Source: an uncultured Acidobacteriota bacterium (GTDB lineage Bacteria > Acidobacteriota > Vicinamibacteria > Vicinamibacterales > 2-12-FULL-66-21). From it: a stretch of 64,000 nt of DNA. The DNA lies in contig CAVUDT010000003.1 in assembly GCA_963740275.1 (NCBI GenBank), positions 205,898 to 269,897 on the forward strand, given 5' to 3'. Below the pieces are notes generated by a model. The model was not told where the DNA came from. It made no database searches and saw only the letters and a program-made list of their open reading frames with translations. Of this stretch, positions 1,918 to 55,279 are shown in pieces. Both the position numbers and the translations under genes were made by a program. Numbering within the stretch: the first letter of the stretch is position 1; each line of letters begins with the position of its first letter.

Positions 1918-2019
1918 GGTTCCAAAGGTTCCAAAGGTTCCAAAGGTTCGGAACCCGGAACCCGGAACCCTTGGAACCTGGAACCGTTTAGACCGGAACC
2001 CTTAGAACCTTTGAGAACC
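1918..2019. repeat. inverted pair of tandem arrays: (GGTTCCAAA)x3 + GGTTC, then (GGAACCC)x3 and about 5 degenerate GRAACC units
   Basis: Read directly: GGTTCCAAAGGTTCCAAAGGTTCCAAAGGTTC|GGAACCCGGAACCCGGAACCCTTGGAACCTGGAACCGTTTAGACCGGAACCCTTAGAACCTTTGAGAACC. It fills the whole convergent spacer between stop 1905-1907 (+) and stop 2019-2021 (-). Confidence 0.9.
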
Positions 2020-3101
2020 TAAAGAGGTGCGGGCAGCTGGATTTCGAACCGGGAGCCTCGATCGAGGCCGGGGCTGGTGACCCGGATGGCGCCGCCGTGC
2101 AGCTCCACCAGGTGACTGGCGAGCGCGAGACCGAGGCCGAGGCCCGCGCTGTTGCCCTCCCCCGGACCACCCTGCCAGAAGCGCTGAAACACCTTCGGCA
2201 GGTCCTGCCTTGCGATGCCTGCGCCGGTGTCTTCCACCGCGATTCTCAGCAGCCGGCCATCCTGCTCAGCGCTGACCGTGATCGAGCCCCCCATCGGAGT
2301 GAACTTGAGCGCATTGGTCAGCAGGTTCCATAGCACTTGCGCGAGCCGGTGGCTGTCGCCGTTGACGATCAGCCCGGGCTGAATGGCCGTATGGAGCTCG
2401 AGCGACTTGTTGAGGGCAGCCGGGCGCAACGACGCGACCGATTGCTCGACCAGCCGGGTCAGGTCGAAAGGCTGCAGATCCACCGACATCTTGCCGGTCA
2501 CGATCCTCGACGAGTCGAGGACGTCGTCGACCAGCCGGCCGAGCGAGGTCGCGTTTCGTGAGATGACGTCGAGCACTCTTGGCAGCTGGTCGGCCGGCAG
2601 CGAGCCGTTCTGCAGCATCTGGACGTAGCCGAGCACCGTGTTCAGGGGCGTGCGGAGCTCGTGCGAGAGCGTGGCCAGGAACTGGTCCTTCGCGCGGCTG
2701 GCCTCCTCGACCGCTCGTTGCAGCCGCTTCTGCTCGCTGATGTCCCTGGCGATCTTCGAGGCCCCGACGATGGTGCCGTCGGGGGCGTGGATCGGGGAGA
2801 CGGTCAGCGAGATCTCCAGCAGTCCGCCGTCCTTGCGCTGCCTGATCGTCTCGTAGTGCTCGACGCTGTTCCCGGCGCGGATCTGGCCGATGACGAACTC
2901 CTCCTCGGCGAAACGGTCGCGGGGGATGATCAGCGAGATATGCCGGCCGACCGCTTCCTCGGCGGTGTATCCGAACAGCCGTTCCGCTGCCTTGTTCCAG
3001 CTGACGACGACGCCGTTCAGGTCCTTGCTGATGATGGCGTCGTCAGACGACGAGATGATTGCGGCGAGGTGGCCGGATGGCTCCGTGGATCCAGCAATCA
3101 T
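2019..3101 (-). CDS. PAS-domain sensor histidine kinase (PAS-HisKA-HATPase_c, soluble)
   Basis: Track ORF of 360 aa. PAS: DAIISKDLNGVVVSWNKAAERLFGY. H-box: FLATLSHELRTPLN. N/G boxes: NLLTNALKFTP, DTGAGI, GLGLGLA. Confidence 0.9.
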   Translation of the reverse strand: MIAGSTEPSGHLAAIISSSDDAIISKDLNGVVVSWNKAAERLFGYTAEEAVGRHISLIIPRDRFAEEEFVIGQIRAGNSVEHYETIRQRKDGGLLEISLTVSPIHAPDGTIVGASKIARDISEQKRLQRAVEEASRAKDQFLATLSHELRTPLNTVLGYVQMLQNGSLPADQLPRVLDVISRNATSLGRLVDDVLDSSRIVTGKMSVDLQPFDLTRLVEQSVASLRPAALNKSLELHTAIQPGLIVNGDSHRLAQVLWNLLTNALKFTPMGGSITVSAEQDGRLLRIAVEDTGAGIARQDLPKVFQRFWQGGPGEGNSAGLGLGLALASHLVELHGGAIRVTSPGLDRGSRFEIQLPAPL

Positions 3102-3156
3102 CCGGCGATTCTAATTTGAATCGTCGCGGTTCGAGGCAAGAGCCCGGAATCGGCGG

Positions 3157-5667
3157 CTAATTGGCCCGCAGCGCGGCGAGCGGGTCCACCCGGGTGGCCC
3201 GCCGCGCCGGAATGTAGCTGGCGAACATCGATGCCGCCGCGAGCACGATCGGCGCGACCACGAACACCAGGGGATCGAAGCCGCTCACGTCGTACAGGAT
3301 CGAGTCGAGCACCCGGCCCATCGCCAACGCGATCGGCAGGCCCACCGCGAGACCGGCGACGGTGAGCCCGACGGACTCACGCATCACCATGCCCATGACG
3401 TCTCCCTGCCGCGCCCCCAGCGCCATCCGGATCCCGATCTCGCGGCTGCGCCTCGACACGAGGTACGACTTCACGCCGTAGACGCCGGCCACCGCCAGGC
3501 CGAGCGCGAGGCCGCCGAAGAGCACGAGCATGCGGCCGCTGGTGCGGATCGCCCAGAGCTCGAGGCTGTTGTCGTGGAAGCGCTGGAGCGTGGTCAGCTC
3601 GAGGATCGGCAACCGGCCGTCGACCGCCCGCAGCTCGCGGCGCAGGGTCTCGGTCATCGCCGCTACCGCGGCTGCATCGGTGTTTGACGAGCGCACGTGG
3701 AGGCTCATCCCGGCGCGATAGTTCGGGCCGAAGGGGACGTAGATGTGCGGATCCTCCCCCTGGTCCATCAGCTCTTCGCGCATCGTCGGCGAGACGCCGA
3801 CGATCTGCATCGGCCCGAGCTGCTCGAGGAGCGGCTCACCCTCGCGCGGGGTGAAGCGGATCGTCTGGCCGACCGGGTCTTCGTTGGGGAACAGCTGGCG
3901 GGCCAGGACCTCGTCGATGATCGCGACCCGGGCGCCGGTGGCGGATTGTTCCTCGGCGATCGTGAAGTCCCGTCCCCTGCGCATCTGGAGACCGAGTGAC
4001 CGGAAGTAACCGGCGCTCACGATGCGGTAGGTCGGGCCAAACAGCGCCGGATCGCGCGGCACACCAGGGCGCTCGACCAGCCGTCCCTCGTGAAATGCCC
4101 CGAATGGCACCGTCGAGGCCAGCGCCGCCGCTTCGATCCCCGGCATCGTCCGGACCCGCTCGAGCACGGCGCGATAGAGATCGCGGCCGCGCGCCTCGTT
4201 GATCTGCGCGACGCCTACGTCGAGCGTGGCGAGCAGGCCGCCTTCGTACGAGAACCCTGGGTTCGCCGAAGTCGCCTTGATCATGCTGCGCGCGAACAGC
4301 CCGCCGGCGCAGAGGAGGCCGAGCGAAAGCGCGAGCTGACCGACCACCAGCATGTTCCTGGCGGTGAACCGTCCCGGCCGGGCGCCGGTGTCGGAAGCCT
4401 GTTCCTTCAGGTCGGTGACGAGATCGACCCGTGACATCTTCAAGGCCGGACCGATTCCGGCGAGCAGGGTCGCGAACCCGACGAAGCCGGCGGTAGCGAG
4501 CAGCACGTTCATGTCCGGCCGCGGTTCGAATACGAGCGTGAGCGGAAGGACGCGAACCAGGCTGGCGACGAGATAGGTGGTCGCCCAGTAAGCGAACACC
4601 AGCCCCGCGGCTGCGCCGACGACCGCGAGCAGGAGACTCTCGGTCAGGAGCTGCCGCACGATCCGCGAGCGGGATCCGCCGAGCGCGAGCCGGAGCGCGA
4701 TCTCCTTGCGCCGGATCGTGCCTCGCGCCAGCAGCATGTTGGCCAGGTTGAGGCAGGCGATGAGCAACACCGTGCCGGTCAGCCCCATCAATGCTGCGCC
4801 GGCGATGCCGAGGCCGGTGTCGGTCATGGGGCGCGTGCTGGTCGACATGCGCGGGAGACGGCTGACGGTGATCGCCTGGTCCCGGTTGTCGGGAGACGCG
4901 ACGGCGATCTGTTCCGACAGTGCCGAGAGCCGTTCCTGCGCGACCTCGATCGTGACGCCGGGCTTCAGCCGGCCGAGGACGATCACCGTGCCGGCCTTCG
5001 GATCGCGCAGGCCGTCGCCGCTGTTCTTGAAGATGTCGTTGACGATGGTGTCGAACACGCCGAGCGGCAGCCAGACCTCCGGCGAGGCCAGCGCCATGGT
5101 GCCGCCGAAGCCCTGTGGCGTCACGCCGACGACGGTGAAATCGATCGAGCTGATCTTCATCGTGCTGCCGACCAGCGCCGGATCGAAGCCGGTCGAACGC
5201 CACTTCTCGTATCCGACGATCACGACCGGGAGGTTCGCGCCGGGACGCTCCTCCTCCGGCAGGAATGCCCGTCCAGCGGCCAGCGGCACCTGCAGCGTCT
5301 CGAAGTAGTTCGAGGAGATGAGCTCGACGAAGATCCGCCGCGTGGTGTCGCCGGAGGGGACCCCGGCCATCGAGAAGGTATGCGCCGCGAGGCCCTCGAA
5401 CACGTCGGACTTCTCTCGAACGTCGACGTAGTTGGGATAGGCGAAGGCGCGATAGGAATCGGGCTTCGAGCGCTCGAAGCGGAAGAGCCCGACGATCCCT
5501 TCTCCCTGCGACGGCACCGGCGTGAACAGCAGCGCGTTGACGACGGTGAAGGTCGCGCTGTTCGCGCCGATGCCGAGGGCGAGGACAAGGATTGCCACCG
5601 CGGTGAAGCCCGGCGCCTTGGCGAACGAGCGAACGGCATAACGAAGGTCCTGCAGCAGGCGTGACAT
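3157..5667 (-). CDS. ADOP-family duplicated FtsX/MacB-like permease (orphan, no adjacent ABC ATPase)
   Basis: Inside track ORF 3157..5943. The plausible start is ATG 5665-5667, giving MSRLLQDLRYAVRSFAKAPGFTAVAILVLALGIGANSATF (typical ADOP N-terminus). There are two FtsX-like four-helix modules, and the C-terminus is RRATRVDPLAALRAN. Confidence 0.85.
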   Translation of the reverse strand: MSRLLQDLRYAVRSFAKAPGFTAVAILVLALGIGANSATFTVVNALLFTPVPSQGEGIVGLFRFERSKPDSYRAFAYPNYVDVREKSDVFEGLAAHTFSMAGVPSGDTTRRIFVELISSNYFETLQVPLAAGRAFLPEEERPGANLPVVIVGYEKWRSTGFDPALVGSTMKISSIDFTVVGVTPQGFGGTMALASPEVWLPLGVFDTIVNDIFKNSGDGLRDPKAGTVIVLGRLKPGVTIEVAQERLSALSEQIAVASPDNRDQAITVSRLPRMSTSTRPMTDTGLGIAGAALMGLTGTVLLIACLNLANMLLARGTIRRKEIALRLALGGSRSRIVRQLLTESLLLAVVGAAAGLVFAYWATTYLVASLVRVLPLTLVFEPRPDMNVLLATAGFVGFATLLAGIGPALKMSRVDLVTDLKEQASDTGARPGRFTARNMLVVGQLALSLGLLCAGGLFARSMIKATSANPGFSYEGGLLATLDVGVAQINEARGRDLYRAVLERVRTMPGIEAAALASTVPFGAFHEGRLVERPGVPRDPALFGPTYRIVSAGYFRSLGLQMRRGRDFTIAEEQSATGARVAIIDEVLARQLFPNEDPVGQTIRFTPREGEPLLEQLGPMQIVGVSPTMREELMDQGEDPHIYVPFGPNYRAGMSLHVRSSNTDAAAVAAMTETLRRELRAVDGRLPILELTTLQRFHDNSLELWAIRTSGRMLVLFGGLALGLAVAGVYGVKSYLVSRRSREIGIRMALGARQGDVMGMVMRESVGLTVAGLAVGLPIALAMGRVLDSILYDVSGFDPLVFVVAPIVLAAASMFASYIPARRATRVDPLAALRAN

Positions 5668-5791
5668 GACCCACCTTGTGACGGCTGAGGGGGGGCGAAG
5701 GTTCCGGAAAACCACCATTCGTCCCTGCCGGCGGGGGCTTCGGCACGCCGGGGTTGCGGGTCTGGGCACTAGAAGAGGAGAGTTCGACCTG

Positions 5792-6745
5792 ATGCGAACG
5801 ATCCGGCTGGTCACTCTCGCCGTCCTGGCCGGCGCCGCCTGCGCCGGTGTGACCGCCGACGCGGGAAAGATCGCGGCCGAGATCAAGCGGCTGACCGTCG
5901 AAGCGCCGGCCGTGCTCCCCGAAGACAGCAAGGCGCCGATCATGTCGCGGCTCGACCGGGCGCGGACGGCGCTGGCCGGCGGCCAGACGTATCTCGCGCT
6001 CTATGACATCCAGCCGGCATTCGAAGGGGAGGGGGGCTACCGGCTCGCGGCGACAGAGAAGAGCGTCACGACCCAGGAGGCGTTTGTCCGCAAGTGGACG
6101 GAGATGGGCCCGCCCGCCGAGCCACCGGCCGGCAAGGCGCCGATCGTGTTCGTCGAAGCGCTGGCGCAGAGCGCGGAGGGTCGCGCCCCGGCCACCTATC
6201 GCGCGAGCCGGCCCTATGCCGAGGACGCCGGGCGCGCGGCGGGGCTGTACTACCTCGGCGAGTCGCACGCGATGGTGCGGTTTGCCGCGTTGTGCCGCAG
6301 CCTGGCCCTGCCACCCGCGGCTGCCGCCAAGCCGCCGATCGGCTCGATCGAGCGGCATCTCGCGGCCTACGAAAGGGACGTCGTCAAGGCGTATGACGCC
6401 GCGGCCGCGGCCGAGCGTCCACGGTTCGCGGCCGTGAACGTCACCATCAAGCTCGCCCGCACCCTCGACGAGCAACGGCGCCACGAAGGGGCGCTGCTGC
6501 AGTACCTGGTCTCGCGATTTCGCTACGGCCTGATCCAGACGACTGGGAAACCGGACCCGTCGATTGACGGTCTCCGCGCCAGGCTTGCCGGCACGAAGCT
6601 GCCGGCCGGCATCGACCACAGCATCGCCGAGTTCTTCGCGCAGCTCGCCGGTGCGGCGCTGAATGGTCCGGAACCGGCGCCGCACGGCGCCGCGGTGATT
6701 CTCGACGACATCCTCCCGGCGTACCTGACGGTGGTGAACAAATGA
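5792..6745 (+). CDS. hypothetical secreted protein
   Basis: Inside track ORF 5666..6745. ATG 5792 is preceded by AGAAGAGGAG and gives the signal peptide MRTIRLVTLAVLAGAACAGV. I recognise no family. Its stop overlaps the next start (ATGA at 6742-6745). Confidence 0.55.
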   Translation: MRTIRLVTLAVLAGAACAGVTADAGKIAAEIKRLTVEAPAVLPEDSKAPIMSRLDRARTALAGGQTYLALYDIQPAFEGEGGYRLAATEKSVTTQEAFVRKWTEMGPPAEPPAGKAPIVFVEALAQSAEGRAPATYRASRPYAEDAGRAAGLYYLGESHAMVRFAALCRSLALPPAAAAKPPIGSIERHLAAYERDVVKAYDAAAAAERPRFAAVNVTIKLARTLDEQRRHEGALLQYLVSRFRYGLIQTTGKPDPSIDGLRARLAGTKLPAGIDHSIAEFFAQLAGAALNGPEPAPHGAAVILDDILPAYLTVVNK

Positions 6746-7665: not shown

Positions 7666-7677
7666 GGTCAAAAATGT

Positions 7678-7738
7678 CTGAATGCTGAATGCTGAATGCT
7701 GAAAATTTGGGTTCTAAGTTCTTTGTTCTGAGTTCTGA
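7678..7738. repeat. two adjacent heptamer arrays: (CTGAATG)x3 and (GTTCTRA)x4
   Basis: Read directly: CTGAATGCTGAATGCTGAATGCTGAAAATTTGG GTTCTAAGTTCTTTGTTCTGAGTTCTGA. It lies in the convergent spacer between stop 7665 (+) and stop 7742 (-) and is noticeably AT-richer than its surroundings. Confidence 0.9.
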
Positions 7739-7741
7739 GTT

Positions 7742-9790
7742 TCACGGCCTTACGTAGAAGGCCGTCCGTGGGAACGAGAATGTCCCGGCGGCGGCATCGA
7801 TGATGTTGATCTGGCAGGTGTAGAGGCCCGGGGTGAACGAGCCGCCGGGAATCTCGAACTGGAACAGCGCCGCCTTGCGATCCGGGACGTCGACTGCGGA
7901 GCGCTCGACCGGGGGCGTTTCGAACACCTTGACCTTCCCGCGGTAGAAGGCGAGGCTGGTACGCAGCTGCGGCCCACCGCCAGCTTCACCTGGCTCGTAA
8001 ACCTCGTAGTAGAAGAAGAGCTTCTGGTCGCGGGCGACGACGTGGGTGACGTTGGGCACGAGCTGCACGCCGTCGCGGATCAGCGGGTTCTGGGAGCGGC
8101 CGCGGCCGGCCGGCTGCAGCTGGGTGCTCAGCACGATCGAGCTGACCTTCACCGCCGCCTGCTTCAGCTCGGGCACCGACAACGGCGTCTCGAACGAGCC
8201 GATCCGTCCGTTGGTGTTCTCGCGGACCACCACCTTCACCGAGAAGCGGCCGGGCGGGAGCGTGACCCCCGACTGATAGAGGACCTGCTTGCCGGCCAGC
8301 GTTGTTCCCGTCGCGGCGGGGAACTTCAGCGTCTCACGCATCCGTCCGAGCGGACGCCCCTGTTCGTCGGTAACGATCCCGAGCACGTCGAGCGACACCT
8401 CCTTGGCGGTGCCGACCGGCACTGCGGAGCCGGGGACGGCAACCGAGATCGGGACGTAGTACTGGTTGCCGCTCAGGCGGAAGAAGCCGCCGCTGACCAT
8501 GACCGGCACGTCGGTCGAGGACACCGGCGAGAACATCTGTTCCTGGAGCTGCATCTCGCGGTCGGACCGGTTGGTATGGGCGAAGTCGCGCTCCGCGAAG
8601 TAACCGGCGCGGGCTTCGACCCGCAGGCCATCGCGCTTGACGCGCACCTGGATACGGCGGAACCGCCCGTCCCTGGTCGTGTTGGTGCTGCTGTAGCCGA
8701 GCAGGTAGTAGGCGGACATGTCGCGCCGCACCCGGGCGTAGGCTTCGCCGAAGTCGTTGGTGTCGGTGAAGGCGCGGCCGCCGGTGTCGGCGGCCAGCGA
8801 GGTCAGGGTGTCCTGCGACGCCGCCAGCCGCGAGAACTGCTGCGCCACGCCGCGGCCCGAGAACAGTGCCTGCCCGCGGCCGCTCGCCTGCCGCGCATCG
8901 CCGCCGGGCACGACCGCCTGGAGGCCGCGCGTATCGACCGGGTAGATCGACACGTGCGCCCGGACGGCCGAGTTGATCGCCGTCCTGAGCTCGATCTGGT
9001 TGTCCTGGCCGCTGCGCTCCATGCCGGCGGAGAAGTAGAGAATCGCCTTCTTCTGCTCGAGCGGCGCCAGGGTGTCGGCGAGCGTCCGCAGCGCGCGCAG
9101 CCGGACGTCGTTGTTGAACATGTCCATCTCGCTCGTCTCGGCGTCAGTAGCGTCGGTCGCGGCCGCGGCTGCCTCCTCCGTCGCCGCGGTGGCGGCGTCG
9201 GGCGGCGGCGTCGCCGTCCCGTCGGTGTAGGCGAGCTGCGCAAGCGTGGCGGCGACCCTGGCGCGGTCCCCGGTGAAGTCGGTGAGCACTTCGAGGGTCG
9301 TGCTGACGGTCGCGACCGCGACCAGATCGGCCGGCGACATCTGCTCCGACACGAACTTGTTGGCCGAGTCGACGGCCCGCTGCACGTCTTCCGGCTGCAT
9401 CGAGCTCACGTCGAACAGCAGCACCATCAGCCGCCGTCCGCTGACGTCCGCGGCGGTCATCGGCCTGGCCGCAACTTCGGCGGCCGGATCGGTCATGCGC
9501 TCCTCGACGCCGGCCAGCAGGTCCGCCGTTGCCATCGGCGTCACGGCCGCATCCGAGATCTCCTCGAAGGAGAGCCCGAGCACCTCCTGGGGCCGTCCAT
9601 CTTCGCGGACTTCGAAGTCGGCCGCCGTCAGCCCTCGAACGATGTTCCCGGCCCGGTCGCGGACGACGATGTCCACCGAGACGAGGTCGCGGCCGCTGCG
9701 AAAGGTTGGGCGCTGCTGGCCGGAGCTGGTGGCGCCGGCCGGAACGAGCATGAACAGACTCAGCGCAACGGCCGCTGCAGGTCGGAGCAT
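7742..9790 (-). CDS. VWA domain-containing protein (VWFA-related acidobacterial domain type)
   Basis: Inside track ORF 7742..10534. ATG at 9788-9790 gives MLRPAAAVALSLFMLVPAGATSSGQQRPTFRSGRDLVSVDIVVRDRAGNIVRGLTAADFEVREDGRPQEV. The start shares one base with the upstream TGA (TGATG), which indicates translational coupling. Confidence 0.85.
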   Translation of the reverse strand: MLRPAAAVALSLFMLVPAGATSSGQQRPTFRSGRDLVSVDIVVRDRAGNIVRGLTAADFEVREDGRPQEVLGLSFEEISDAAVTPMATADLLAGVEERMTDPAAEVAARPMTAADVSGRRLMVLLFDVSSMQPEDVQRAVDSANKFVSEQMSPADLVAVATVSTTLEVLTDFTGDRARVAATLAQLAYTDGTATPPPDAATAATEEAAAAATDATDAETSEMDMFNNDVRLRALRTLADTLAPLEQKKAILYFSAGMERSGQDNQIELRTAINSAVRAHVSIYPVDTRGLQAVVPGGDARQASGRGQALFSGRGVAQQFSRLAASQDTLTSLAADTGGRAFTDTNDFGEAYARVRRDMSAYYLLGYSSTNTTRDGRFRRIQVRVKRDGLRVEARAGYFAERDFAHTNRSDREMQLQEQMFSPVSSTDVPVMVSGGFFRLSGNQYYVPISVAVPGSAVPVGTAKEVSLDVLGIVTDEQGRPLGRMRETLKFPAATGTTLAGKQVLYQSGVTLPPGRFSVKVVVRENTNGRIGSFETPLSVPELKQAAVKVSSIVLSTQLQPAGRGRSQNPLIRDGVQLVPNVTHVVARDQKLFFYYEVYEPGEAGGGPQLRTSLAFYRGKVKVFETPPVERSAVDVPDRKAALFQFEIPGGSFTPGLYTCQINIIDAAAGTFSFPRTAFYVRP

Positions 9791-12700
9791 CAGAATCGGA
9801 ACCGCAGCCCGAGCTGCATGGAGCGCATCGGCCGGACGGAAAGGACCTGCCCGAACGTCGGGGAGTTGACCAGCGTATCGATGGCGGCGTAGTTGACCAT
9901 GTTGAGGAGGTTGCTGGCGCTGAGATTGACGCTGAGGACACGGGTGTCGCCGAGCCGGATGTCGCGCGAGATCTGCGCGTCGAGCTGACGGCTGCCCGGC
10001 CCGATGATCAGATTCCGGCTGGCGCTGCCGAAGCTCCCGGTCGCCGGCACGGTGAACGCCGCGGTGTTGAAGAACAGGTCGATCGTCGGATCGTTCACCC
10101 GGATCGCGTCGCCGTTGTAGTCGGCGCGCAGCGTCCCGCTCGTGCCGCGGGCGACGTCGGCGGCGGCCGCCTGCACGCGGGGCGTGTAGGGCGTGCCTGA
10201 CTGCCACGAAAAATTGGCCGATGCCCGCCAGTTCTCGAGGAGGCTGGCCCACGGGCCGCCGTTGGCCAGCCAGCGCCGGTTCGGGCCGAAGGGCAACTCG
10301 AACGACAGGTCGGCCGCGACCTGATGCCGGCGGTCGAAGCTGGAGAGCCCCCACTCGGCGTCGAGGTCCTGGTCGTTCTGCGCCACTACCGTGCCGCCGC
10401 CGCCGATGGTCGAGGCGTTGTCGCGCGACTTCGCCAGCGTGTAGCTGAGGCCGCCGCCGAGGCCGCGCATCGGCCGCCGTCTCGCGCGGAGCGCGAGCGC
10501 ATTGAGCACCGAAGATCCTTCGGCGGTCTGCCACAGGAAGGGCTGGACACCCGGGATCCGCAGACCCTCCGGGCCGCGATTGGGCGCCCGCACGATGTCG
10601 AGGCTCGAGCCGCGGGTGTGCGTGTAGCTCGCGCCGACGTTCCAGACCTGCCGCAGGTCCTTCGAGATGTCTCCGTTCCAGGTCTGCACCAGCCCGAGCG
10701 CGTAGTTCTTGTCGACCCCGTAGTTGTTGGCGATCTCATCGCCGCTCGATCCGGCAAACGCGTTCTGGATCGTCAGCGGGTCCTCTGGCGTGCCGAGCTG
10801 CGTGTCGGTGACGGCGAACGGAGGCTGCGCCACCATCTGACGAGCGATTCCGGCGTACGAACCGGCGTTGTAGCTGATCCCGTAGCCGCCGCGGACGACG
10901 GTGCCGGGGGCGGCGCGCCAGGCGAAGCCGGCGCGCGGGGCGAGGTTGTTGGTGTCGGCGCGCACCAGGGCAGACGGGAACGCGCCGGTGAATGGGCCGG
11001 TGCCACCCGAAAGCACCGGCGCGGCGGCGCTGAAATCGGCGGGGACGTCGAGATTCGCCATGCGGCCGTTGTCTTCGTAGAACGGCCACAGCAGCTCGTA
11101 TCGCAGGCCGAAGTTGAAGGTGAGCGTCGCGCTGCGCCGCCAGTCGTCCTGCAGGAACAGGCTCATGGACCGGCCGGCAATCTGCACCTCGCCGGAGCCG
11201 TACTGGACGTTCGCACCCTGCGGCAGGCCGAGAAGGAAATCGGCGAAGTCGAGGCCGCCGCCGCTGGCCGACGCCAGGCCGCCCGACGAATGAAGCCCGG
11301 TGAAGGTGTAGGCGCCACGCGCGTTCGCGTCGGTGCGTGAGTCGGCCTGGTCGAGGCGAAAATCACCGCCGAGGTGAATCGTGTGGCGCGTACGCCACGG
11401 CCGGGTCATGGTGTAGCCGAGCGTGAGCCGCTGATCCAGCCGGTCGTTCGGCGTCACGTCGCGCACGCTGCTCAAGCTCGAAAACGACAGCGTCGGCACC
11501 CCCCAGTTGAGCGGATCGGTGGCGACGCCGGTAATGCCGGCGTCGCCGGCGACATCCTCGACGAACGAGTACCGGCTCAACGCCCGCGACGCCGTACGCG
11601 TGAAGGTCACGTTCACGTTGTGCAGCATTCGCCGGTGGCTGATGTTGAGCGAGACCGGCAGCGACAACGACGAGCCGCTGCTGACACCGCCGAGGGTGGG
11701 GAACACGTTGTTCAGCTCGTTGTCGTTGCGGCGGTACTGGAGCTGCGCGTTCATGACCACCGAGGTCCCCTGCTGCCCACCGCGGCCGCGTCCCCCCGGA
11801 CCACCTGCCCGCCCGCCGCCGCCGCGTCCGCCGCCGGCACCGCGGCCACCCGCCTGGGTGAAGTTGTGGGTCATGCGGAGGTTCAGGTTGTCGGACACGG
11901 TGTCGGTCGTGGTCACGTAGTGGAAGTTGCGGCTCGTGCCATCGAGGTTGGGTGTGGGAATGAACCGCAGCAGGGCCACCGACGCGCTATCCATGCGCGA
12001 GGCCGGCACCTGGTTGCCGGCGAATGGCTGTCCGGTCGAAGGGTCGACCAGCGGCGCGTCGATCGAGGAGAAATCGCCCGACCGCATCGCCGCGGTCGGC
12101 ACGGTGGCGTACTGGTCGAACAGCTGATCGCCGCGGTTGCCGTTGTAGCTGGCCGTGAATGTCGTCCGGCGCTGGCCGTTGTAACCGGGGAGGCGCACTG
12201 GTCCGCCGACGGTGACCCCGAACGTCTGACGGTTGTACGGGGTCGACCCCACCGGCCGGTCGGGGCGCAGTTGATAGGGGGCGCTGTCGAGCGCCGAGCC
12301 GCCGTAGTTGTAGTTCGTCTGGATGTTGTAGGCGCGCTGGCGGCCGCCCCGTCCGCCGATCACGAAATCGCCGCGGCCGCCACGGCCTCCGGGGCCGCCG
12401 GCCCGGCCTCCGGGCCCGCCGGGTCCGCCGCGTCCTTCCTGCCCGCCGCGGCCGCCCGGGCCGCCCGGTTCGCTCCGACCGGCCGGGCCAAAGCCCTGCG
12501 CCAGTTCCCCGGTGACCGGATCGATCTCACCGCGGCCGATCGCCTCGAAACGATCCCCCATCATCCCGCGATCCAGGTTGGCCATGTTGCCGCTCACCGC
12601 GAGCGACTCGGTCGGTGCGTCCGGAGAGAAGCCCGGCGGCAGCAGCAGGCGGGTCGAGGCGTCGACCAGCTCGCGCTCCGGCTGCGGCAGTTCGGCCGCC

Positions 12701-13146: not shown

Positions 13147-13185
13147 CTGAAGGCTCCTGGCGCCCGCGACACAAGGCTCTTTGAA

Positions 13186-13247
13186 CAGGAGGTCAGAAGA
13201 TCAGGAGTCTTTTGGATCTGAATCTCCTGAACTCCTCGTCTCCTGTA
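13186..13247. repeat. 8-nt-period inverted array: CAGGAGGT CAGAAGAT CAGGAGTC / loop / CTCCTGAA CTCCTCGT CTCCTGTA
   Basis: Read directly. It lies between the kinase stop (13263) and the TonB-receptor start (13146). It is a hairpin-forming, likely terminator of the RR-HK operon. The units equal the SD and anti-SD of the downstream gene. Confidence 0.8.
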
Positions 13248-13262
13248 AGAAATCTGCTCGAC

Positions 13263-33025: not shown

Positions 33026-33238
33026 AAAAGGGGTGCGAAGGGGTGCGGAAGGGTGCGCGAGGGGGGTGCGGGGGGTGCAGGGGGGTGCGGAAAGGGTGCG
33101 GGGGGTGCGGGTAATGCGCATTTAGCGCGCGCACACTACCGCACCTTGAAGGGCGCCCTCTCGACCTGCCCGCACTCTTGAACTGCCTTCCGAACCCGCA
33201 CCCTTCCGCACCCCCCCGCACCCTTTTCGCACCCCTTT
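33026..33238. repeat. long imperfect hairpin built from about 9 G-rich GGGTGCGG-type units (33030-33112) and about 6 complementary CCGCACCC units (33139-33237)
   Basis: Read directly. The base of the stem is AAAGGGGTGCGAA (33027-33039) pairing with TTCGCACCCCTTT (33226-33238). The left arm meets the G>=3 N1-7 x4 G-quadruplex pattern. The structure starts 1 nt after the TGA of the activator gene and ends 6 nt before the mlaE ATG. Confidence 0.9.
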
Positions 33239-33243
33239 AGAGC

Positions 33244-34056
33244 ATGGATCGCACCTTGCAGCTGAGCCGGGTAATGGCAGCTTTGGCGACGTCCGCTACC
33301 AACTACCTCGCCGTGGCGGGGGAGTTTGCCGTGTTTGCGGGCAAGGCGGCGCGGCAGGCGTTCCTGCCACCATTCGAGTTCCGCGAGACGGTTCGCCAGC
33401 TCTATGAGCTCGGGCTCCGGTCGGCGCCGCTGATTGCGGTCTCGGGCATGGCGGTGGGGGTGGTGCTGTCGATGCACACCCGTGCGTCGCTCGAGCGGTT
33501 CGGGGCCGAGTCGATGATTCCCGCCGGTCTGGCGATCGCGCTCGTGCGCGAAACCGGTCCGCTGACCGCGGGGCTGCTCCTCTCCGGGCGGATCGGCGCC
33601 GGGATCGGCGCCGAGCTGGGGGCGATGCGCGTCACCGAGCAGATCGACGCCCTCGAAGCCTCGGCGGTCGATGCGTTCCGTTACCTGGTGGTGACCCGGG
33701 TGGTAGCCTGCGTCATCGCGCTGCCGCTGCTCACCACGATCATGAATTTCGCCGGCATGCTCGGCGGCTTCATCGCCGAGACGGCATCGACCGGGATGTC
33801 GCTGGGTCTGTACTTCGACCGCGCCTTTGCGCTGATCGACATGAGCGACTACGTTCCGGCGACGCTGAAGACGATGGTCTTCGGCTTCATCATCGCGACG
33901 GTCTCGTCGTTCCTCGGGTTCACGACGAGCTCCGGGACCGAGGGGGTCGGCCGGGCGTCGACCCGCGCTGTGGTCCTCTCGTCGATCATGATCATCGTTG
34001 CCAACGTCGTGCTCGTGCGGCTGATCTTCTTCATCTTCCCCCAGGCGTCAGGATGA
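33244..34056 (+). CDS. mlaE: MlaE-family ABC transporter permease
   Basis: Track ORF of 270 aa. Contains LVRETGPLTAGLLLSGRIGAGIGAELGAMRVTEQIDALE, typical of MlaE. Confidence 0.9.
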   Translation: MDRTLQLSRVMAALATSATNYLAVAGEFAVFAGKAARQAFLPPFEFRETVRQLYELGLRSAPLIAVSGMAVGVVLSMHTRASLERFGAESMIPAGLAIALVRETGPLTAGLLLSGRIGAGIGAELGAMRVTEQIDALEASAVDAFRYLVVTRVVACVIALPLLTTIMNFAGMLGGFIAETASTGMSLGLYFDRAFALIDMSDYVPATLKTMVFGFIIATVSSFLGFTTSSGTEGVGRASTRAVVLSSIMIIVANVVLVRLIFFIFPQASG

Positions 34057-48920: not shown

Positions 48921-49087
48921 CCCCCCTGGGCGGACAGTTTTTTCCCTGCCGTTTCAGGACTGCGTGCGTTTGCCGATGACATTTTTGGGTTTGCACGGTT
49001 TCGCGCGGAGATTCGCGAATTTCCCTGCGGCACCCTCCTTGCCTCAGCAGCTTCTGGCATGATGTCCGCGTCGGGCTCGATCAGGTC

Positions 49088-49759: not shown

Positions 49760-49809
49760 ACCGGCCGACCGCGCCCGGGAGGCGCGGACGCGCGGTGTAT
49801 GCTTTCGAC

Positions 49810-51393
49810 GTGAAACGCCGCCTTCTTCCGGTCGCTACCGCGATCCTCGCCGCCCTCTCGCTCGACCCCGTACCTTCCGCACAACAACCGCCTCCCTTCA
49901 CTCTCGACGAGCTCACCATCACGCAGTTGCAGGAGGGGATGGCCGCCGGGCGCTATACCGCCCGGCAACTCGTCGACAGCTACACGCGCCGGATCGAGGA
50001 GATCGACCGGAACGGCCCGGCGCTGCGCTCGGTGATCGAGATGAACCCGGAGGCCGGCTCGATCGCGGACGCACTGGACGCCGAGCGGAAGGCAGGGAAG
50101 GTCAGGGGGCCGCTCCACGGCATCCCGGTGCTGATCAAGGACAACATCGACACCGGCGACCGGATGATGACCACCGCCGGATCGCTGGCGCTGGAAGGGG
50201 CCAGCGCGCCGCGCGATTCCTCCGTCGCCGCCCGGCTGCGGGCTGCCGGTGCCGTGATCCTGGGCAAGACCAACCTCAGCGAGTGGGCCAACTTCCGCTC
50301 GACGAAATCTACCAGCGGATGGAGCGCGCGTGGCGGTCAGGTGCGTAATCCGTACGTCCTCGACCGGAATCCGTGCGGCTCGAGCTCGGGCACCGGTGCG
50401 GCGATTGCGGCGAACCTGGCGTCCGTCGGCGTCGGTACCGAAACCGACGGCTCGATCGTATGTCCGTCATCGGTCAGCGGGCTGGTCGGGATCAAGCCGA
50501 CCGTCGGCCTGATCAGCCGCGCCGGGATCATCCCGATCTCGAAGACGCAGGACACCGCTGGTCCGATGACCCGAACCGTCGCCGATGCCGCCGCGGTACT
50601 CACCGCGCTGGCCGGTCCGGATCCGGCCGATCCCGCGACCGCTCGGGCCCGCGTTGCCGACTACCTGAAGGCGCTCGACGCCGGAGCCTTGAAGGGCGCA
50701 CGGATCGGTATCCCTCGTAAACGGTATTTCGGCTACAGCCCGAAGACCGACGAGGCGGTGAACGAAGCGATCCGGGTCATGCGCCAGCAGGGCGCGGTGA
50801 TCGTGGACCCGGCCGACATCCCGACGGCGGCCGGTCTGGAGGACTGCGAGTTCGAGGTTTTGCTCTACGAATTCAAGGACGGCCTCAACGCCTACCTGCG
50901 GGCGCGCGGACCCGGCGGCAGGGTCAAGTCGCTCGAGGATCTGATCGCTTTCAACGCGAAGGAGGCCGCGCGTGAACTGCCGTTCTTCGGGCAGGAGATC
51001 CTCGAGATGGCGCAGCGCAAGGGTCCGCTGACATCCGCTGCCTACCGAAAGGCGATGACCACCTGCCGAACGAGGTCGCGCGCCCTGGGCATCGACGCGG
51101 TGATGACCCGGCATCGGCTCGACGCTCTGGTGGCGCCGAGCGGAGGGCCGGCCTGGCCAATCGACCTGGTGAACGGTGATCACTTTCTCGGCGCCAGCTC
51201 GACTCCTGCGGCGATCGCCGGATACCCGAACATCACCGTGCCGGCGGGTTACGTCCAGGAACTGCCGATCGGGATCTCGTTCATCGGCCGCGCCTGGAGC
51301 GAAGCGCGGCTGATCGGGCTCGCCTACGCCTACGAGCAGGCGACGAAACACCGCCGGGCGCCGCGGTTTCTACCGACGCTGGAGCCCCGATAG
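49810..51393 (+). CDS. amidase-signature family amidase (exported)
   Basis: Inside track ORF 49681..51393. GTG 49810 gives (M)KRRLLPVATAILAALSLDPVPSAQ. Contains GIPVLIKDNIDT, GKTNLSEWANF and NPCGSSSGTGAAIAANL..GTETDGSIVCPS. Confidence 0.85.
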   Translation: MKRRLLPVATAILAALSLDPVPSAQQPPPFTLDELTITQLQEGMAAGRYTARQLVDSYTRRIEEIDRNGPALRSVIEMNPEAGSIADALDAERKAGKVRGPLHGIPVLIKDNIDTGDRMMTTAGSLALEGASAPRDSSVAARLRAAGAVILGKTNLSEWANFRSTKSTSGWSARGGQVRNPYVLDRNPCGSSSGTGAAIAANLASVGVGTETDGSIVCPSSVSGLVGIKPTVGLISRAGIIPISKTQDTAGPMTRTVADAAAVLTALAGPDPADPATARARVADYLKALDAGALKGARIGIPRKRYFGYSPKTDEAVNEAIRVMRQQGAVIVDPADIPTAAGLEDCEFEVLLYEFKDGLNAYLRARGPGGRVKSLEDLIAFNAKEAARELPFFGQEILEMAQRKGPLTSAAYRKAMTTCRTRSRALGIDAVMTRHRLDALVAPSGGPAWPIDLVNGDHFLGASSTPAAIAGYPNITVPAGYVQELPIGISFIGRAWSEARLIGLAYAYEQATKHRRAPRFLPTLEPR

Positions 51394-51534
51394 GAGCGGG
51401 CGCGGCAGGGGATCGATTTGCCCCGGAACAATACGGGCCTTCCCGCTGGCTGGCGCGCGAACCGGGGATGCACGCTGGCCGGCGTTCCGTACCGGGTTGG
51501 CCATATGCGTCGGCGGCGGCGCGGTTAGGTTAGG

Positions 51535-52056
51535 ATGGCTGGAATGAATTCGATGCTGTTGGCCGTGCTTCTCCTGGCTCCGGTTCTCGTCCAGACCGGT
51601 GAGCTGACCTTTACTGCTCCGGCGGCGTGGAAGCCGCGGCCGGCGGCGAGCACGATGCGGGTCGCGGAGTTCGTGGTGCCGAAGACCGCACCCGACACCG
51701 AGGATGCGGAAGTGATCGTGTATTTCTTCGGCGGCACCGGCGGAAGCGTCGACGCCAACATCGAGCGCTGGGTCGGGCAGTTTCAGCAGCCGTCCGGCGG
51801 CGCGGCCACCGGCAGCCGCGGCGCGCTGACGGTCGGGAAATTGAAAGTGACGACCGTCGACGTGAGCGGAACCTACGTCGCGGAAGTCCGTCCGGGCGCG
51901 GCGGAGCGACACAACAAACCGAACTACCGAATGCGCGCCGCCGTCGTCGAAACCCCGCGAGGCCCGTACTTCGTCAAGTTCACCGGCCCCATCGCCACCG
52001 TGACCCAGGCCTCCGCCGCCTTCGACCAGTTCATCAGAGGGCTGGGGTTCAAGTAG
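51535..52056 (+). CDS. hypothetical exported protein
   Basis: Track ORF of 173 aa. Signal-like N-terminus MNSMLLAVLLLAPVLVQ (alternative start 51544). No family recognised. Its TAG is the first unit of the following heptamer array. Confidence 0.5.
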   Translation: MAGMNSMLLAVLLLAPVLVQTGELTFTAPAAWKPRPAASTMRVAEFVVPKTAPDTEDAEVIVYFFGGTGGSVDANIERWVGQFQQPSGGAATGSRGALTVGKLKVTTVDVSGTYVAEVRPGAAERHNKPNYRMRAAVVETPRGPYFVKFTGPIATVTQASAAFDQFIRGLGFK

Positions 52057-52150
52057 CTGCCAGCTGCCAGCTACCAGCTACCAGCTACCAGCTACCAGCT
52101 GCCAGCTGCCAGCTACCAGCTGCCAGCTACCAGCTATCAGCTGTCAGCTG
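52053..52150. repeat. 14 tandem heptamers YCAGCTR
   Basis: Read directly: GTAGCTG CCAGCTG CCAGCTA x4 CCAGCTG x2 CCAGCTA CCAGCTG CCAGCTA x2 TCAGCTG x2. The CAGCTG core is itself palindromic, so the array is self-complementary in many registers. Confidence 0.92.
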
Positions 52151-52189
52151 TGCTAGCCGGTAGCCCACCGGCCTCCGTCACCTCACAGC

Positions 52190-52312
52190 GCCCCTCCGCC
52201 TTGGCCGCACTCCTCCGCACCCCTCCGCACCCCTCCGCACCCTCCGCACCCCCCGCACCCTTTTGCGCACCCTTCCGCACCCCCGCACCCGCCGCACCCT
52301 TCCGCACCCCCA
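52190..52312. repeat. about 10 tandem CCGCACC(C)-type units with 7-10 nt period (G-rich GGGTGCGG in the sense of the adjacent minus-strand permease)
   Basis: Read directly: CTCCGCACCCCTCCGCACCCCTCCGCACCCTCCGCACCCCCCGCACCCTTTTGCGCACCCTTCCGCACCCCCGCACCCGCCGCACCCTTCCGCACCCCC. This is the same unit as the right arm of the 33026-33238 structure. It ends about 6 nt before the permease stop at 52318. Confidence 0.92.
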
Positions 52313-52317
52313 CGTCC

Positions 52318-54729
52318 CTACTGCTGCCTGAGCGCGACCATCGGATCCGCCTTGGTGGCCTTGAATGCCGGCAGCGCACAGGCGGCCAGCGCGACGGCGA
52401 GCTGGATCATCGCGGTCACCGAGAAACTGAGCGGATCCGCCGGGCTGACGCCGAACAGGGTGCGGGAGAGGAGCCGGGCGGCGACATACGCCGCGATCGA
52501 GCCGAGCGCGAGCCCGGGCAAAACGAGACTGATGCCTTCGCGGATCACCGAACCGAGCACGCGGCCGCGGGTGGCGCCGAGCGCGACCCGGATCCCGAAC
52601 TCACGGGTCCGCTGCAGCACGGTGAAGTAGAGCACGCCGAAGAGGCCGACCGTTGCGAGGATGGTTGCGAGCACGCCGCAGATGAGGAAGAACCCGGCCG
52701 CCGTTCGGGACGGCCACAGCTGCAGCTTCATCAACTCGGTCACGGTGTCCACCCGGACCGGCACATTCTCGTCGAGTGCACGCATCTGGTCCCTGATCGG
52801 TGCGAGCAGATTCCGGGGGGTGGCGTTGCTGCGGATGATCACGGTGATGCCACCCGCCCAGGATTCGGGCGACATCGGACGATAGACGTAGGGAACCGTC
52901 CCGTCGGCGGCATACCGATTCCTGATGTCGCGCGCCACCCCGATGACCGTCACCCGGCGTCCCTCGTCGCCCAGGAGAAAAGTGCGACCCACGGCGGCGG
53001 ATGTCCCCGGCCACATCTGTCGCGTCAGATGTTCGCTGACGATGACTACGTCGTCCCTGCCCATGTCTGCCGCGGTGAAGTGCTTGCCGTCGAGCAAGGG
53101 CACGCCCAGCGCCTCGAGGTGGCCGGGCGACACGGAGTAGACCACTGCCAGCCGGCAGTCGACGACCGTGCAATCGGACTCGCCGGCGCTGTACTCGAGG
53201 CGCTTCGGTGTCCCGAACGAAATCGGGATGCGATCCGCGGCCCCGACCGCGACGACGCCAGGCAATGCGCGCAGGCGGGCCTCGAGGTCCTCCACCAGCA
53301 GCCGCGCCGAGGCAGGCTGATATCCGTGCATCGACGGCTCCACCTGCAGGACCACGGTGTTCGCCGTGTCGAAGGCGTTGTCGAATGCCGAGTTCTTCAG
53401 GAAGCTGCGCACGAGCAGGAGTGCCGCGACCAGGAAGAGCGTCGAACCGGCGACCTGCGCGACGACCAGCGCGTTGCGGACCCGTGAGGGTGGTCCGCCG
53501 AGAATCGACTCGAGACGGAATGAGGCGAGCACGTTCTGTCTGGTCGCCTGCAGAGCGGGGAGCACCGCCGGGGCGACGCCGGCGATCAGCACCAGCAGCA
53601 CGGTGAAACCGACCAGGGTCCGGTCGATCCCCAGGTGAATGCGCTGCGGAATCGGCGCCGGCAGGCTGAAGGTGGCCAGCAGGTCGCCGCTCCAGGCCGC
53701 GAGTACGAGCGTGGCGCTTCCGGCCAGCACCGCCAGCACGATCCCTTCGGTGGTCAGCTGGCGCAGGATGCGGGCGCGGCCGGCGCCGAGCGCCATTCGC
53801 ACGCCGATCTCGCGTTGACGCTCGCTGGCGCGGGCCATCAGCAGCGCCGCGACGTTGAAGCAGGCCAGCACCAGGACGATGGCGACGATCGCGAGCGCCA
53901 GCCACGCGTACTTGGCGATTTCACGGACCTCCGGGTGCCCTTCGTCCATCGGATAGAAACGGGCGATGCGCTCCGCGCCGGCTTCCTTCGATGCCGGCGC
54001 CCATTGCCGGCTGATCGCGTCGAGCTCGGCCACCGCCTGGGCACGCTCGACGCCGTTCCGCAGGTGACCGAACATCAGAAGACTATCGTCGTCCTGCAAC
54101 GCGGAGGGGAGGTTGAGGACATCGCGGCGAGCCAGCGGCAGCCACATATCGGGTGAGAACAGCCCGCCCCGTCCCTGGTAGTCGTCCGGCAGGACCCCCA
54201 CCACCGAAAAGGTCCGGGTGTTGACCACGATCGTCTGGCCGCCGAGGCTGCGGGGAGCGCCGAGCGTCTCTTTCCAGAATCGGTGCGAAACGACCACCGG
54301 CAGGTCGGTGCCGGTCAGGTCGTCGGCGGTGAACACCCGCCCGATCTCGGGGCGGGCGCCGACCGTGTTCAGGTAGTTGGTGCTGACCAGGGCCGACCAG
54401 GCCTGGCGTGCGCCATTCGCGGTATGCAGGCTGACCGGCAGCCGGCCCTCGGCGGCGATGGCATCGAACGACGTGCTGGCGCTGGCCAGGTGTTCGAACT
54501 CTTTCTGTGTCGCCTGGCCATAGGCGGCCTTGCCTTCGATCCGGATCCAGCCCACGCGGTCAGCGTTGTCGACACGGAACGGCCGCAACACGAGCGCGTT
54601 GATCGCATTGAACGCCACCGTGGTCACGCCGATCCCGAGTGCCAGCGTCAGCACCGCGATCAACGAGAAGCCCGGCCGGTTGATCAACGCCCGGACGGCG
54701 TAGCGAAGGTCGAGGCGAAGGGCGTCCAT
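52318..54729 (-). CDS. ADOP-family duplicated FtsX/MacB-like permease (second copy, orphan)
   Basis: Track ORF of 803 aa. N-terminus MDALRLDLRYAVRALINRPGFSLIAVLTLALGIGVTTVAF. Two FtsX modules. C-terminus ATKADPMVALRQQ. Confidence 0.88.
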   Translation of the reverse strand: MDALRLDLRYAVRALINRPGFSLIAVLTLALGIGVTTVAFNAINALVLRPFRVDNADRVGWIRIEGKAAYGQATQKEFEHLASASTSFDAIAAEGRLPVSLHTANGARQAWSALVSTNYLNTVGARPEIGRVFTADDLTGTDLPVVVSHRFWKETLGAPRSLGGQTIVVNTRTFSVVGVLPDDYQGRGGLFSPDMWLPLARRDVLNLPSALQDDDSLLMFGHLRNGVERAQAVAELDAISRQWAPASKEAGAERIARFYPMDEGHPEVREIAKYAWLALAIVAIVLVLACFNVAALLMARASERQREIGVRMALGAGRARILRQLTTEGIVLAVLAGSATLVLAAWSGDLLATFSLPAPIPQRIHLGIDRTLVGFTVLLVLIAGVAPAVLPALQATRQNVLASFRLESILGGPPSRVRNALVVAQVAGSTLFLVAALLLVRSFLKNSAFDNAFDTANTVVLQVEPSMHGYQPASARLLVEDLEARLRALPGVVAVGAADRIPISFGTPKRLEYSAGESDCTVVDCRLAVVYSVSPGHLEALGVPLLDGKHFTAADMGRDDVVIVSEHLTRQMWPGTSAAVGRTFLLGDEGRRVTVIGVARDIRNRYAADGTVPYVYRPMSPESWAGGITVIIRSNATPRNLLAPIRDQMRALDENVPVRVDTVTELMKLQLWPSRTAAGFFLICGVLATILATVGLFGVLYFTVLQRTREFGIRVALGATRGRVLGSVIREGISLVLPGLALGSIAAYVAARLLSRTLFGVSPADPLSFSVTAMIQLAVALAACALPAFKATKADPMVALRQQ

Positions 54730-54767
54730 TCGGTACCTGTAGACGGCTCAGGGGCTGGGGGAGTTCC

Positions 54768-55279
54768 GTCACGTGCGATGTGCTACGTGCTACGTGCTGG
54801 GTGCCGATGTGCGACGTGCGACGTGCGGTGCTGTGTGCGATGTGCGGTGCTACGTGCGACGTGCGGTACGTGCGACGTGCGACGTGCGAAGTGCTGCGTG
54901 CGAGCGTGCGGTGCGAAGTGCTGTGTGCGGTGCGAAGTGCTGTGTGCGGTGCGAAGTGCTGTGTGCGGTGCGAGGTGCTGTGTGCGGCGCGAGGTGCTGT
55001 CGGCGGTGCTGTGTGCGGTGCAGGTATTGTGTGCGGTGCGACGCGGCCGTGCCGTGCCACCTGCTGCGCGCGGGCCGCACGTGGCACAGCACACAGCACG
55101 CACGTAGTACCTATCACCGCACGTCGCACGTGCACGCACGTCGCACGTAGCACGCACGTCGCACCGCACGTCGCACGTAGCACGCACGTGGCACGCAGCA
55201 CCGCACGTAGCACCTAGCACCGCACGTAGCACATCGCACGTACGCACGCCGCACGTAGCACCTAGCACCTAGCACGTGT
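54768..55279. repeat. about 510-nt composite repeat: G/T-rich arm of GTGCNNN heptamers (including a 19-mer GTGCGGTGCGARGTGCTGT x5 at 54906-55000) and a C/A-rich arm of NNNGCAC heptamers, mirrored about 55060-55080
   Basis: Read directly. The left arm starts CACGTGCGATGTGCTACGTGCTACGTGC and the right arm ends GCACGTAGCACCTAGCACCTAGCACGTG. The apex is GTGCCAC (55054-55060) / GTGGCAC (55081-87). It fills the spacer between the aminotransferase stop (55280) and the permease start (54729). Confidence 0.92.

Follow-up and report, generated by a model that had tools for sequence, protein, structure and literature searches.

The stretch of DNA analyzed here, 64,000 nucleotides of a contig from an uncultured Acidobacteriota bacterium (CAVUDT010000003.1, positions 205,898 to 269,897; hereafter the window), contains six intergenic spacers with short-period tandem arrays, mainly of heptamers, all of which adjoin stop codons. 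We find these arrays to be long simple-sequence repeats of the heptamer class, and their origin by slippage is well supported by comparison with a second strain. Many of them are paired with an array of the complementary unit, and the reading that we prefer, with a probability of about 0.5, is that the paired arrays act as stem-loops that would end or protect transcripts and insulate neighboring transcription units. That they are a by-product devoid of function is almost as likely.

Arrays were detected using Tandem Repeats Finder together with direct reading of the sequence, and those with a period of 6-11 and at least 3 copies were counted. The window contains 12 such arrays covering 929 bases, as against a mean of 0.52 arrays (15 bases) and a maximum of 3 in 50 dinucleotide shuffles of the window. 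About 25 arrays of this kind were found in 914 kb of other, unrelated bacterial loci, where they are concentrated in a few contigs. Genes were mapped from codon statistics and checked against Pfam, and comparison loci from other assemblies are designated by L-numbers (L096, L013 etc.). The G+C content of the window is 64-71%. The homologs of its MlaE protein, 84-95% identical, are labeled Vicinamibacterales or Acidobacteriota in their sources, and by these homologs the host, a soil acidobacterium, is to be placed in the Vicinamibacterales. Neither a tRNA gene nor an Rfam family at gathering thresholds was detected in the 64-kb window. All six spacers singled out in the initial annotation of this DNA were recovered at their positions. 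They and their arrays are listed below.

Spacer 1908-2018, convergent, between an unknown 200-aa gene and a PAS histidine kinase gene
1918..1949, 5' arm, GGTTCCAAA x3.6 with 100% matches; starts 10 nt past the stop (1905-1907) of the plus-strand gene and, in the fold of lowest energy, pairs with 1950-2013
1950..2020, 3' arm, GGAACC-type units of 7 and 9 nt; overlaps the stop (2019-2021) of the convergent PAS histidine kinase gene
Spacer 7666-7741, convergent, between a thioredoxin-like gene and a 682-aa ORF
7673..7703, unpaired CTGAATG x4.3; 7 nt past the stop of the thioredoxin-like gene
7711..7741, unpaired GTTCTRA x4.4; ends at the stop (7742-7744) of the convergent minus-strand ORF
Spacer 13147-13262, same direction, minus strand, histidine kinase, then outer-membrane beta-barrel protein
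13186..13247, marginal paired octamers, CAGGAGNN x3 then CTCCTGNN x3, degenerate; 15 nt after the stop of the minus-strand histidine kinase gene, with the start of the outer-membrane beta-barrel gene 39 nt further on
Spacer 33026-33243, same direction, plus strand, NtrC-type sigma-54 activator, then mlaE
33028..33111, G-rich 5' arm, (A)AGGGGTGCG(G) x8-9; starts 2 nt past the stop of the sigma-54 activator gene; plus-strand G-quadruplex motif
33150..33238, C-rich 3' arm, CCGCACCC(TT) x6; ends 6 nt before a sigma-54-like promoter motif
Spacer 52057-52317, convergent, between a 170-aa gene and a MacB-FtsX permease gene
52055..52150, CAGCTRC x13, self-complementary unit (CAGCTG core); overlaps the TAG stop (52054-52056) of the 170-aa gene
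52172..52310, minus strand, unpaired CCGCACC-type x11; 7 nt from the permease stop (52318-52320); G-rich in the sense of the minus-strand permease gene, with minus-strand G-quadruplex motifs
Spacer 54730-55279, same direction, minus strand, aminotransferase, then the same MacB-FtsX permease
54771..55041, 5' arm of a large hairpin, GTGCGAC/GTGCGGT heptamers, among them a 19-nt higher-order repeat x5; in the minus sense it stops 41 nt short of the permease start (54729)
55076..55277, 3' arm of the large hairpin, GTCGCAC/GTAGCAC heptamers; separated by 2 nt from the minus-strand aminotransferase gene's stop (55280-55282)

The distance from array to stop codon is 0-15 nt at all six loci, inside the 0-30 nt that had been proposed, and the number of overlapped stops, two, is as previously described. 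The copy number ranges from 3 to about 35 without a peak at 4. The weakest locus is 13186-13247, which falls under the threshold of Tandem Repeats Finder. The units include GGTTCCAAA, CTGAATG, GTTCTRA, CAGGAGNN, GGGGTGCG, CAGCTRC and GTGCGAC, and at least nine unrelated ones are present in the 64 kb. The unit changes from locus to locus, as had been noted earlier, but it is not fully locus-specific: a unit family GGGTKCN (GGGTGCG, GGTTCC, GGGTTCA) turns up at several loci and in relatives, and in L015 both variants of it are intermixed inside one array. There are also two CCGCACCC arrays in the window, at 33196 and 52205. The two may have dispersed from one source, but matches of 16-20 nt are expected between low-complexity arrays.

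In a ranking of inverted repeats across the whole window the strongest were those of the arrays. Spacers were folded as RNA, and the significance of each fold was expressed as a z value against shuffles. Four of the six spacers greatly outperformed shuffles. The spacer at 1908-2018 reached -54.8 kcal/mol (z -6.7) and that at 33026-33243 reached -140 kcal/mol (z -7.1), and the region 54760-55285 was predicted to form a 526-nt single hairpin of -330 kcal/mol (z -14.5), whose arms measure about 200-270 nt. Self-folding is predicted for the CAGCTRC array (z -3 to -4.8), because its unit holds the palindrome CAGCTG. The fold at 13186 is weak (-27 kcal/mol, z -2.5), and neither 7666-7741, whose two arrays had been correctly described as non-complementary, nor the CCGCACC array at 52172-52310 (z 0.2) folds beyond shuffles. 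Thus, four of the six loci (1918, 13186 weakly, 33028 and 54771) form hairpins; the remaining two consist of a self-complementary array beside an unpaired one, and of a pair of unrelated arrays. When relatives are counted together with the window, z is -3 or lower for 17 of 31 array regions, and about 45% of the arrays are unpaired.

An assembly of the same species from a different sample, L096, aligns to 42344-64000 of the window, is 98-99% identical to it around the arrays and contains the same arrays. The insertions and deletions that separate the two in this region are concentrated in the arrays. Relative to the window, the CAGCTRC array of L096 is 42 nt shorter, which is exactly 6 units, its CCGCACC array differs by +14 and -7 nt, and the 5' and 3' arms of its large hairpin differ by +68 and -22 nt, respectively; the two arms therefore change independently. 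The 19-nt higher-order repeat is likewise confined to one arm of the large hairpin. These differences bear the signature of slipped-strand replication, and slippage as the origin of the arrays is well supported by them. The 526-nt hairpin locus itself is retained in both strains. The same comparison bears on the concern that the arrays are artefacts of long-read metagenome assembly or sequencing. The longest arrays were indeed seen in long-read assemblies only, and 1-nt insertions and deletions in the window relative to L096 break the aminotransferase gene. However, an independent assembly from another sample has the arrays at identical positions, Illumina MEGAHIT and JGI contigs (L013/L014, L020, L031 and L098) contain smaller ones of the same type, and an artefact would not respect gene boundaries, which makes this explanation extremely unlikely.

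Orthologous spacers in related genomes had been suggested as a test of unit identity and copy number, and beyond the copy-number differences of L096 many of them revealed either different units or no array at all. In the spacer between the sigma-54 activator and mlaE genes no array was found in L012, L015, L016, L017 or L018, and only simple hairpins in L021 and L022, while L013/L014 (Illumina, MlaE 89% identical) have a paired array built from another unit, CAAACTY then GTTTGRR. In the spacer downstream of the permease gene, GGGTGCGG-type units are found in the window and L096, a long palindrome of GAGRACAC and GTGTTTCTTCT units (z -11.7) in L099, AAATGGT units directly after the stop in L101, and no array in L097. 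In L098, which encodes a 75% identical ortholog of the histidine kinase, GGAACCT/CGAACCT units overlap the stop and the short-read contig ends within the repeat. Thus, arrays are gained, lost and replaced over short evolutionary timescales, and some spacers acquire them repeatedly. At 1200-1282 of L098 a 21-nt higher-order repeat, CCTGGAACCTCGAACCTAG, covers the final codons of the histidine kinase ortholog together with its stop, which also speaks for slippage; since the repeat includes the stop codon, the array has grown out of, or into, the gene end.

The activator-mlaE spacer offers useful context. At 33245-33260 on the plus strand we noted a sigma-54-type -24/-12 promoter-like motif, TGGATCGCACCTTGCA (TGG-N8-TTGCA), 14 nt upstream of the mlaE ATG (33274), which is the sole match in the window and is kept in place in L013, L012 and L017. 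An mla operon that depends on sigma-54 and whose transcript has almost no leader is suggested by this. Both in the window (33026-33243) and in L013, the paired array exactly fills the gap from the activator stop to this motif, which is where a terminator or insulator of the upstream gene would be expected.

To quantify the placement of the arrays relative to genes we pooled the window with 14 related loci, giving 242 kb in total. Arrays were found in 6 of 23 convergent spacers (26%; 1.06 arrays per kb), in 15 of 89 same-direction spacers (17%; 0.78 per kb) and in 4 of 32 divergent spacers (12.5%; 0.33 per kb). Arrays with a unit that is not a multiple of 3 number about 3 in 205 kb of coding sequence (0.015 per kb), and arrays are about 50-fold enriched in intergenic DNA. 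The best-scoring period is 7 in 18 of the 25 array-bearing spacers, and coding arrays are mostly of period 9. The depletion in divergent spacers is weak (about 2.5-fold per kb, binomial P ~0.05). An outright absence from such spacers, indicated by a first, smaller sample (0 of 21), did not survive the addition of more data. The arrays are, then, an intergenic feature with a modest 3' bias, and the occupation of gene 3' ends that is seen at all six loci of the window holds only as a tendency over the 242 kb.

The proposal that we favor for the paired arrays starts from slipped-strand replication, which would create heptamer arrays in non-coding spacers and keep resizing them. About half of the arrays adjoin an array of the complementary unit, by which the spacer would become one long stem-loop, able to pair in many registers because a shift by a whole unit still pairs. 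Transcribed at the end of the upstream cistron, such paired arrays may form or protect the 3' end of the transcript, either by termination without a U-tract, by blocking 3' exonucleases or by presenting a target to a double-strand-specific RNase. They would also insulate neighboring transcription units, as might be the case at 33026-33243, between the stop codon and the conserved sigma-54-type promoter. The unpaired arrays would be the same mutational product minus the stem-loop structure.

Several observations weigh against a role at transcript ends. The fold energies of nine same-direction spacers favor the sense strand at 6 and the antisense strand at 3, without a consistent bias, and the largest hairpin is more stable on the antisense strand, by 36 kcal/mol in the window and by 88 kcal/mol in L096. 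The pairs are nearly all Watson-Crick, and the complementarity looks like a DNA-level inverted repeat rather than the product of selection on one transcript. A T-run follows none of the arrays, and no terminator-like site was found at any array of the window; the arrays consequently depart from the canonical intrinsic terminator, a G+C-rich hairpin with an immediate T-run. The two arms are unequal and drift apart between the window and L096, and the array is absent from the orthologous spacer in L012, L015, L016, L017 and L097. Finally, arrays are found within probable operons, where they separate genes whose counterparts in relatives overlap (L015 3703-3985, L102 5314-5465), and in some divergent spacers; a strong terminator at such places would be harmful. 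In the window as a whole, matches to canonical terminators are no more numerous than in shuffles (8 vs 8.7, 13 vs 9.6 and 2 vs 5.8), and a scan for canonical promoters gave no hits at the arrays and no more than in shuffles.

It had also been claimed that, in the sense of the gene that has just ended, the G-rich arm comes first. An inverted repeat reads the same on both strands, the first-read arm being identical on either, so that this order is automatic at the paired loci; the claim is informative solely for the unpaired array at 52172-52310. As a general rule it did not hold either: it was followed in 10 of 12 cases in a first sample, which looked significant, and after the addition of L100 and L102 there were 7 G-first and 4 C-first cases among the Vicinamibacterales.

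Some of the same observations can be accommodated if the arrays are a tolerated mutational by-product without a selected function, generated by slippage and occasional template-switch inverted duplication that fill unconstrained spacers, with the 3' bias resulting from purifying selection against arrays in promoters and coding sequence. Such an origin is consistent with the differences in presence between close relatives and in copy number between strains, the unequal and independently changing arms, the large unpaired fraction, the lack of both a sense-strand folding bias and a T-run, the arrays in divergent and operon-internal spacers, and a depletion in divergent spacers that is merely about 2.5-fold per kb. 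Yet slippage alone does not give complementary arrays side by side, and over half of all arrays have a paired partner; in 3 of 4 lineages the spacer downstream of the permease gene acquired arrays whose units are unrelated, for which we estimate P ~0.035 at the observed base rate; and long palindromes are usually unstable, yet the 526-nt one is kept in two strains. Taken by itself, we hold this explanation to be a tentative one, at clearly less than even odds.

The G-quadruplex roadblocks put forward in the initial annotation, in which G-rich arrays on the sense strand after stops would fold as DNA or RNA and stall RNA polymerase, fare considerably worse. Four of the eight (G3+N1-7)x4 motifs of the window lie within the arrays at 33028-33223 and 52220-52318, both of which are G-rich in the sense of the gene just ended, and oligonucleotides of the Xanthomonas heptamer unit form quadruplexes in vitro (PMC4692102). 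However, such motifs are confined to these two of the six loci, the other four (GGTTCCAAA, CTGAATG/GTTCTRA, CAGGAG and GTGCGAC) as well as most arrays of the relatives (CAAACTY, AATCCCT, AAATGGT) being devoid of G3 tracts, and where a complementary arm is present its duplex competes. As a general role we therefore regard quadruplex formation as quite unlikely. We consider very unlikely the suggestion that the arrays serve a dedicated protein as binding sites, or that they represent a mobile element of the REP/REPIN or MITE (miniature inverted-repeat transposable element) kind spread by a transposase. They do resemble REP/BIME in being extragenic and capable of forming palindromes, and the GGGTKCN family recurs at several loci and in relatives, but the at least nine unrelated units in 64 kb argue against a single sequence-specific protein. 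Moreover, orthologous spacers hold different units, the arrays have no shared flanks or terminal repeats, the insertions and deletions are local gains and losses of units, and no transposase or REP-associated tyrosine transposase was seen among the window genes scanned directly and the annotated neighbors of the syntenic loci.

Heptamer arrays next to stop codons with inverted pairing have in fact been published, and the architecture, which the initial annotation could not assign to a described element, is hence not new. Rehm et al. 2015 (PMC4692102) described GGGAATC arrays in Xanthomonas, 183-186 per genome with 2-26 units each, of which 89-93% are intergenic at a mean of 28 nt from the upstream ORF, many of them within 50 bp of a stop codon or overlapping it, and which are rare between divergent ORFs. 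In 70-75 cases these are paired convergently, that is inverted, such that stem-loops or cruciforms are possible; their length differs between close species, transcript starts or stops are more frequent at them than at controls, and their function was left unresolved (PMC4692102). Stalling of RNA polymerase by quadruplexes was proposed for both the Xanthomonas and the Nostoc repeats. The arrays studied here share with the Xanthomonas GGGAATC and Nostoc GGGGAYT repeats the period of 7, the mostly intergenic location beside or over the upstream stop, the lower frequency between divergent ORFs, the frequent inverted pairing, and the variation in length and sequence between close relatives. In contrast to Xanthomonas, where a single unit dominates each genome and arrays of four units, the fewest that can form a quadruplex, are preferred, the window has at least nine units, most of them without quadruplex potential, and copy numbers of 3 to about 35, with quadruplex motifs at two of the six loci. 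None of the units conforms to GGGAATC/GGGANTN or GGGGAYT, GGGTGCG and GGGTTCA sharing with them only the form of a G-run plus four bases. What distinguishes our arrays from those published is hence the phylum, the many units per genome, some of them self-complementary, the arms of up to about 270 nt, and the scarcity of quadruplex potential.

The wider class to which the arrays belong was surveyed by Mrazek, Guo and Shah 2007, who, as summarised in PMC4679880, described long simple-sequence repeats with units of 5-11 nt that are longer than expected by chance. The heptamer was the commonest unit, the repeats were non-coding unless the unit was a multiple of 3, polymerase slippage was invoked as their origin, and Burkholderia, cyanobacteria, Actinobacteria and Xanthomonas had the richest genomes (PMC4679880). 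Our arrays agree with this description in exceeding chance length, in being dominated by heptamers with non-triplet units kept out of coding sequence, and in copy-number polymorphism; the paired inverted arrays of the window are not described in that summary of the survey. MacGregor 2015 (PMC4679880) reported TAACTGA heptamer arrays that are mostly found, in one orientation, just upstream of start codons, with only one inverted pair; the hosts of these and of the short tandemly repeated repetitive sequences (STRR) are cyanobacteria, Beggiatoaceae and Bacteroidetes. The cyanobacterial STRR of Calothrix and Nostoc had been named as the nearest known elements, a fair comparison in that they and the TAACTGA repeats are intergenic heptamer arrays with a patchy phylogenetic distribution and at times several heptamers per genome. 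The STRR heptamers of heterocystous cyanobacteria are CCCCAGT, TTGGTCA and CAACAGT. None of these matches a consensus unit of the window, and the host here belongs to the Vicinamibacterales.

The earlier exclusion of CRISPR, REP/BIME, coding repeats and insertion sequence (IS) ends was upheld. CRISPR consist of 24-48 nt repeats with unique spacers, while the units of the window are of 7-10 nt and directly abut, and there is no Rfam match. REP elements are known to stabilise upstream mRNA or attenuate transcription. Like REP, BIME and REPIN, the arrays are extragenic, hairpin-forming and often located 3' of genes or between cistrons, but those elements have units of 20-40 nt, one conserved sequence per family, hundreds of dispersed copies and a dedicated transposase (PMC3116915), unlike the head-to-tail units of 7-10 nt seen here, which differ in sequence by locus. 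No literature linking Vicinamibacter with tandem repeats was found.

In some bacterial genomes few unexplained non-coding features are as abundant as heptamer tandem arrays, for which the two decades since the survey have brought no established function. Their occurrence is now extended to the Acidobacteriota, a dominant and poorly studied soil phylum, in which the phenomenon is extreme, with arrays in about 17% of spacers and one hairpin of 526 nt. The finding of unrelated array sequences in the same spacer of different lineages points to structure or position, rather than sequence, as the relevant property. A bolder and rather doubtful extension would be that the paired arrays are selected for structure and not sequence: the Vicinamibacterales and some other soil bacteria, such as the organism of L031, would time and again re-invent long, register-tolerant hairpins from unrelated heptamers at the same spacers. 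These might serve as length-tunable, bidirectional transcript-ending or insulating elements in a genome without canonical U-tract terminators, with slippage fine-tuning read-through heritably. On the practical side, arrays break short-read assemblies, as in L098, which ends inside one, can mislead gene callers, because ORFs run through them, and could serve as strain markers by virtue of their differences between strains.

The searches for relatives also yielded loci outside the orthologous spacers. The permease search retrieved only distant Acidobacteriaceae (about 31% identity), in which no arrays were found. The metagenome search with MlaE retrieved mostly distant taxa, which were used as a negative control, and the array-bearing L020 and L031 were among them. 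L020 has two paired arrays. L031, an unidentified soil contig of 56% G+C, has a succession of three paired heptamer arrays (10745-11850), which lie between the gene for a secretin and those for two pseudopilins and have the units GGATTGC/GCAATCC, GATTTTG/CAAAATC and AATTGAA/TTCAATT; each begins 3-23 nt past the upstream stop, and their folds have z values of -4.4 to -8.9. Every 3' arm shares the reading frame of the gene downstream, for which it would supply the prepilin leader peptide as far as the G|FTLLE cleavage motif, and the start codon of the first pseudopilin gene lies within the hairpin loop. L100 (1-21497) is a very array-dense relative with heptamer or octamer arrays in 8 spacers over 21.5 kb, one of them divergent; a convergent spacer in it is wholly filled by AATCCCT x11 then GGATTAG x12 (z -13.3).

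A few further features of the window were noted. The permease gene flanked by arrays on both sides (52318-54729) has a paralog at 3157-5667; each encodes about 800 aa without an adjoining ATPase gene, and both presumably represent the orphan duplicated permease type that we take to be common in Acidobacteria. The aminotransferase gene (55280-56414, minus strand) is split into two ORFs in the window and is intact at 364 aa in L096, the frame breaks being an extra G at 55539 and a missing G at 56234; this reflects either errors in the long-read consensus or a pseudogene. In the segment 46500-50000, with genes for an enoyl-CoA hydratase, a response regulator and an amidase, the window and L096 are only about 80-85% identical, as against 98-99% elsewhere, and it looks like a recombined or imported segment. 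At 12369-12465 an in-frame period-9 repeat encodes a Gly/Pro/Arg-rich linker (GGPGGRGG...) of a CarboxypepD_reg and outer-membrane beta-barrel protein; this is an ordinary coding repeat, separate from the intergenic arrays. Lastly, the palindrome GGGGCCTGGCCCC occurs as two non-tandem copies, at 57693-57707 and 57772-57786, which lie 65 nt apart in a region where no gene is called.

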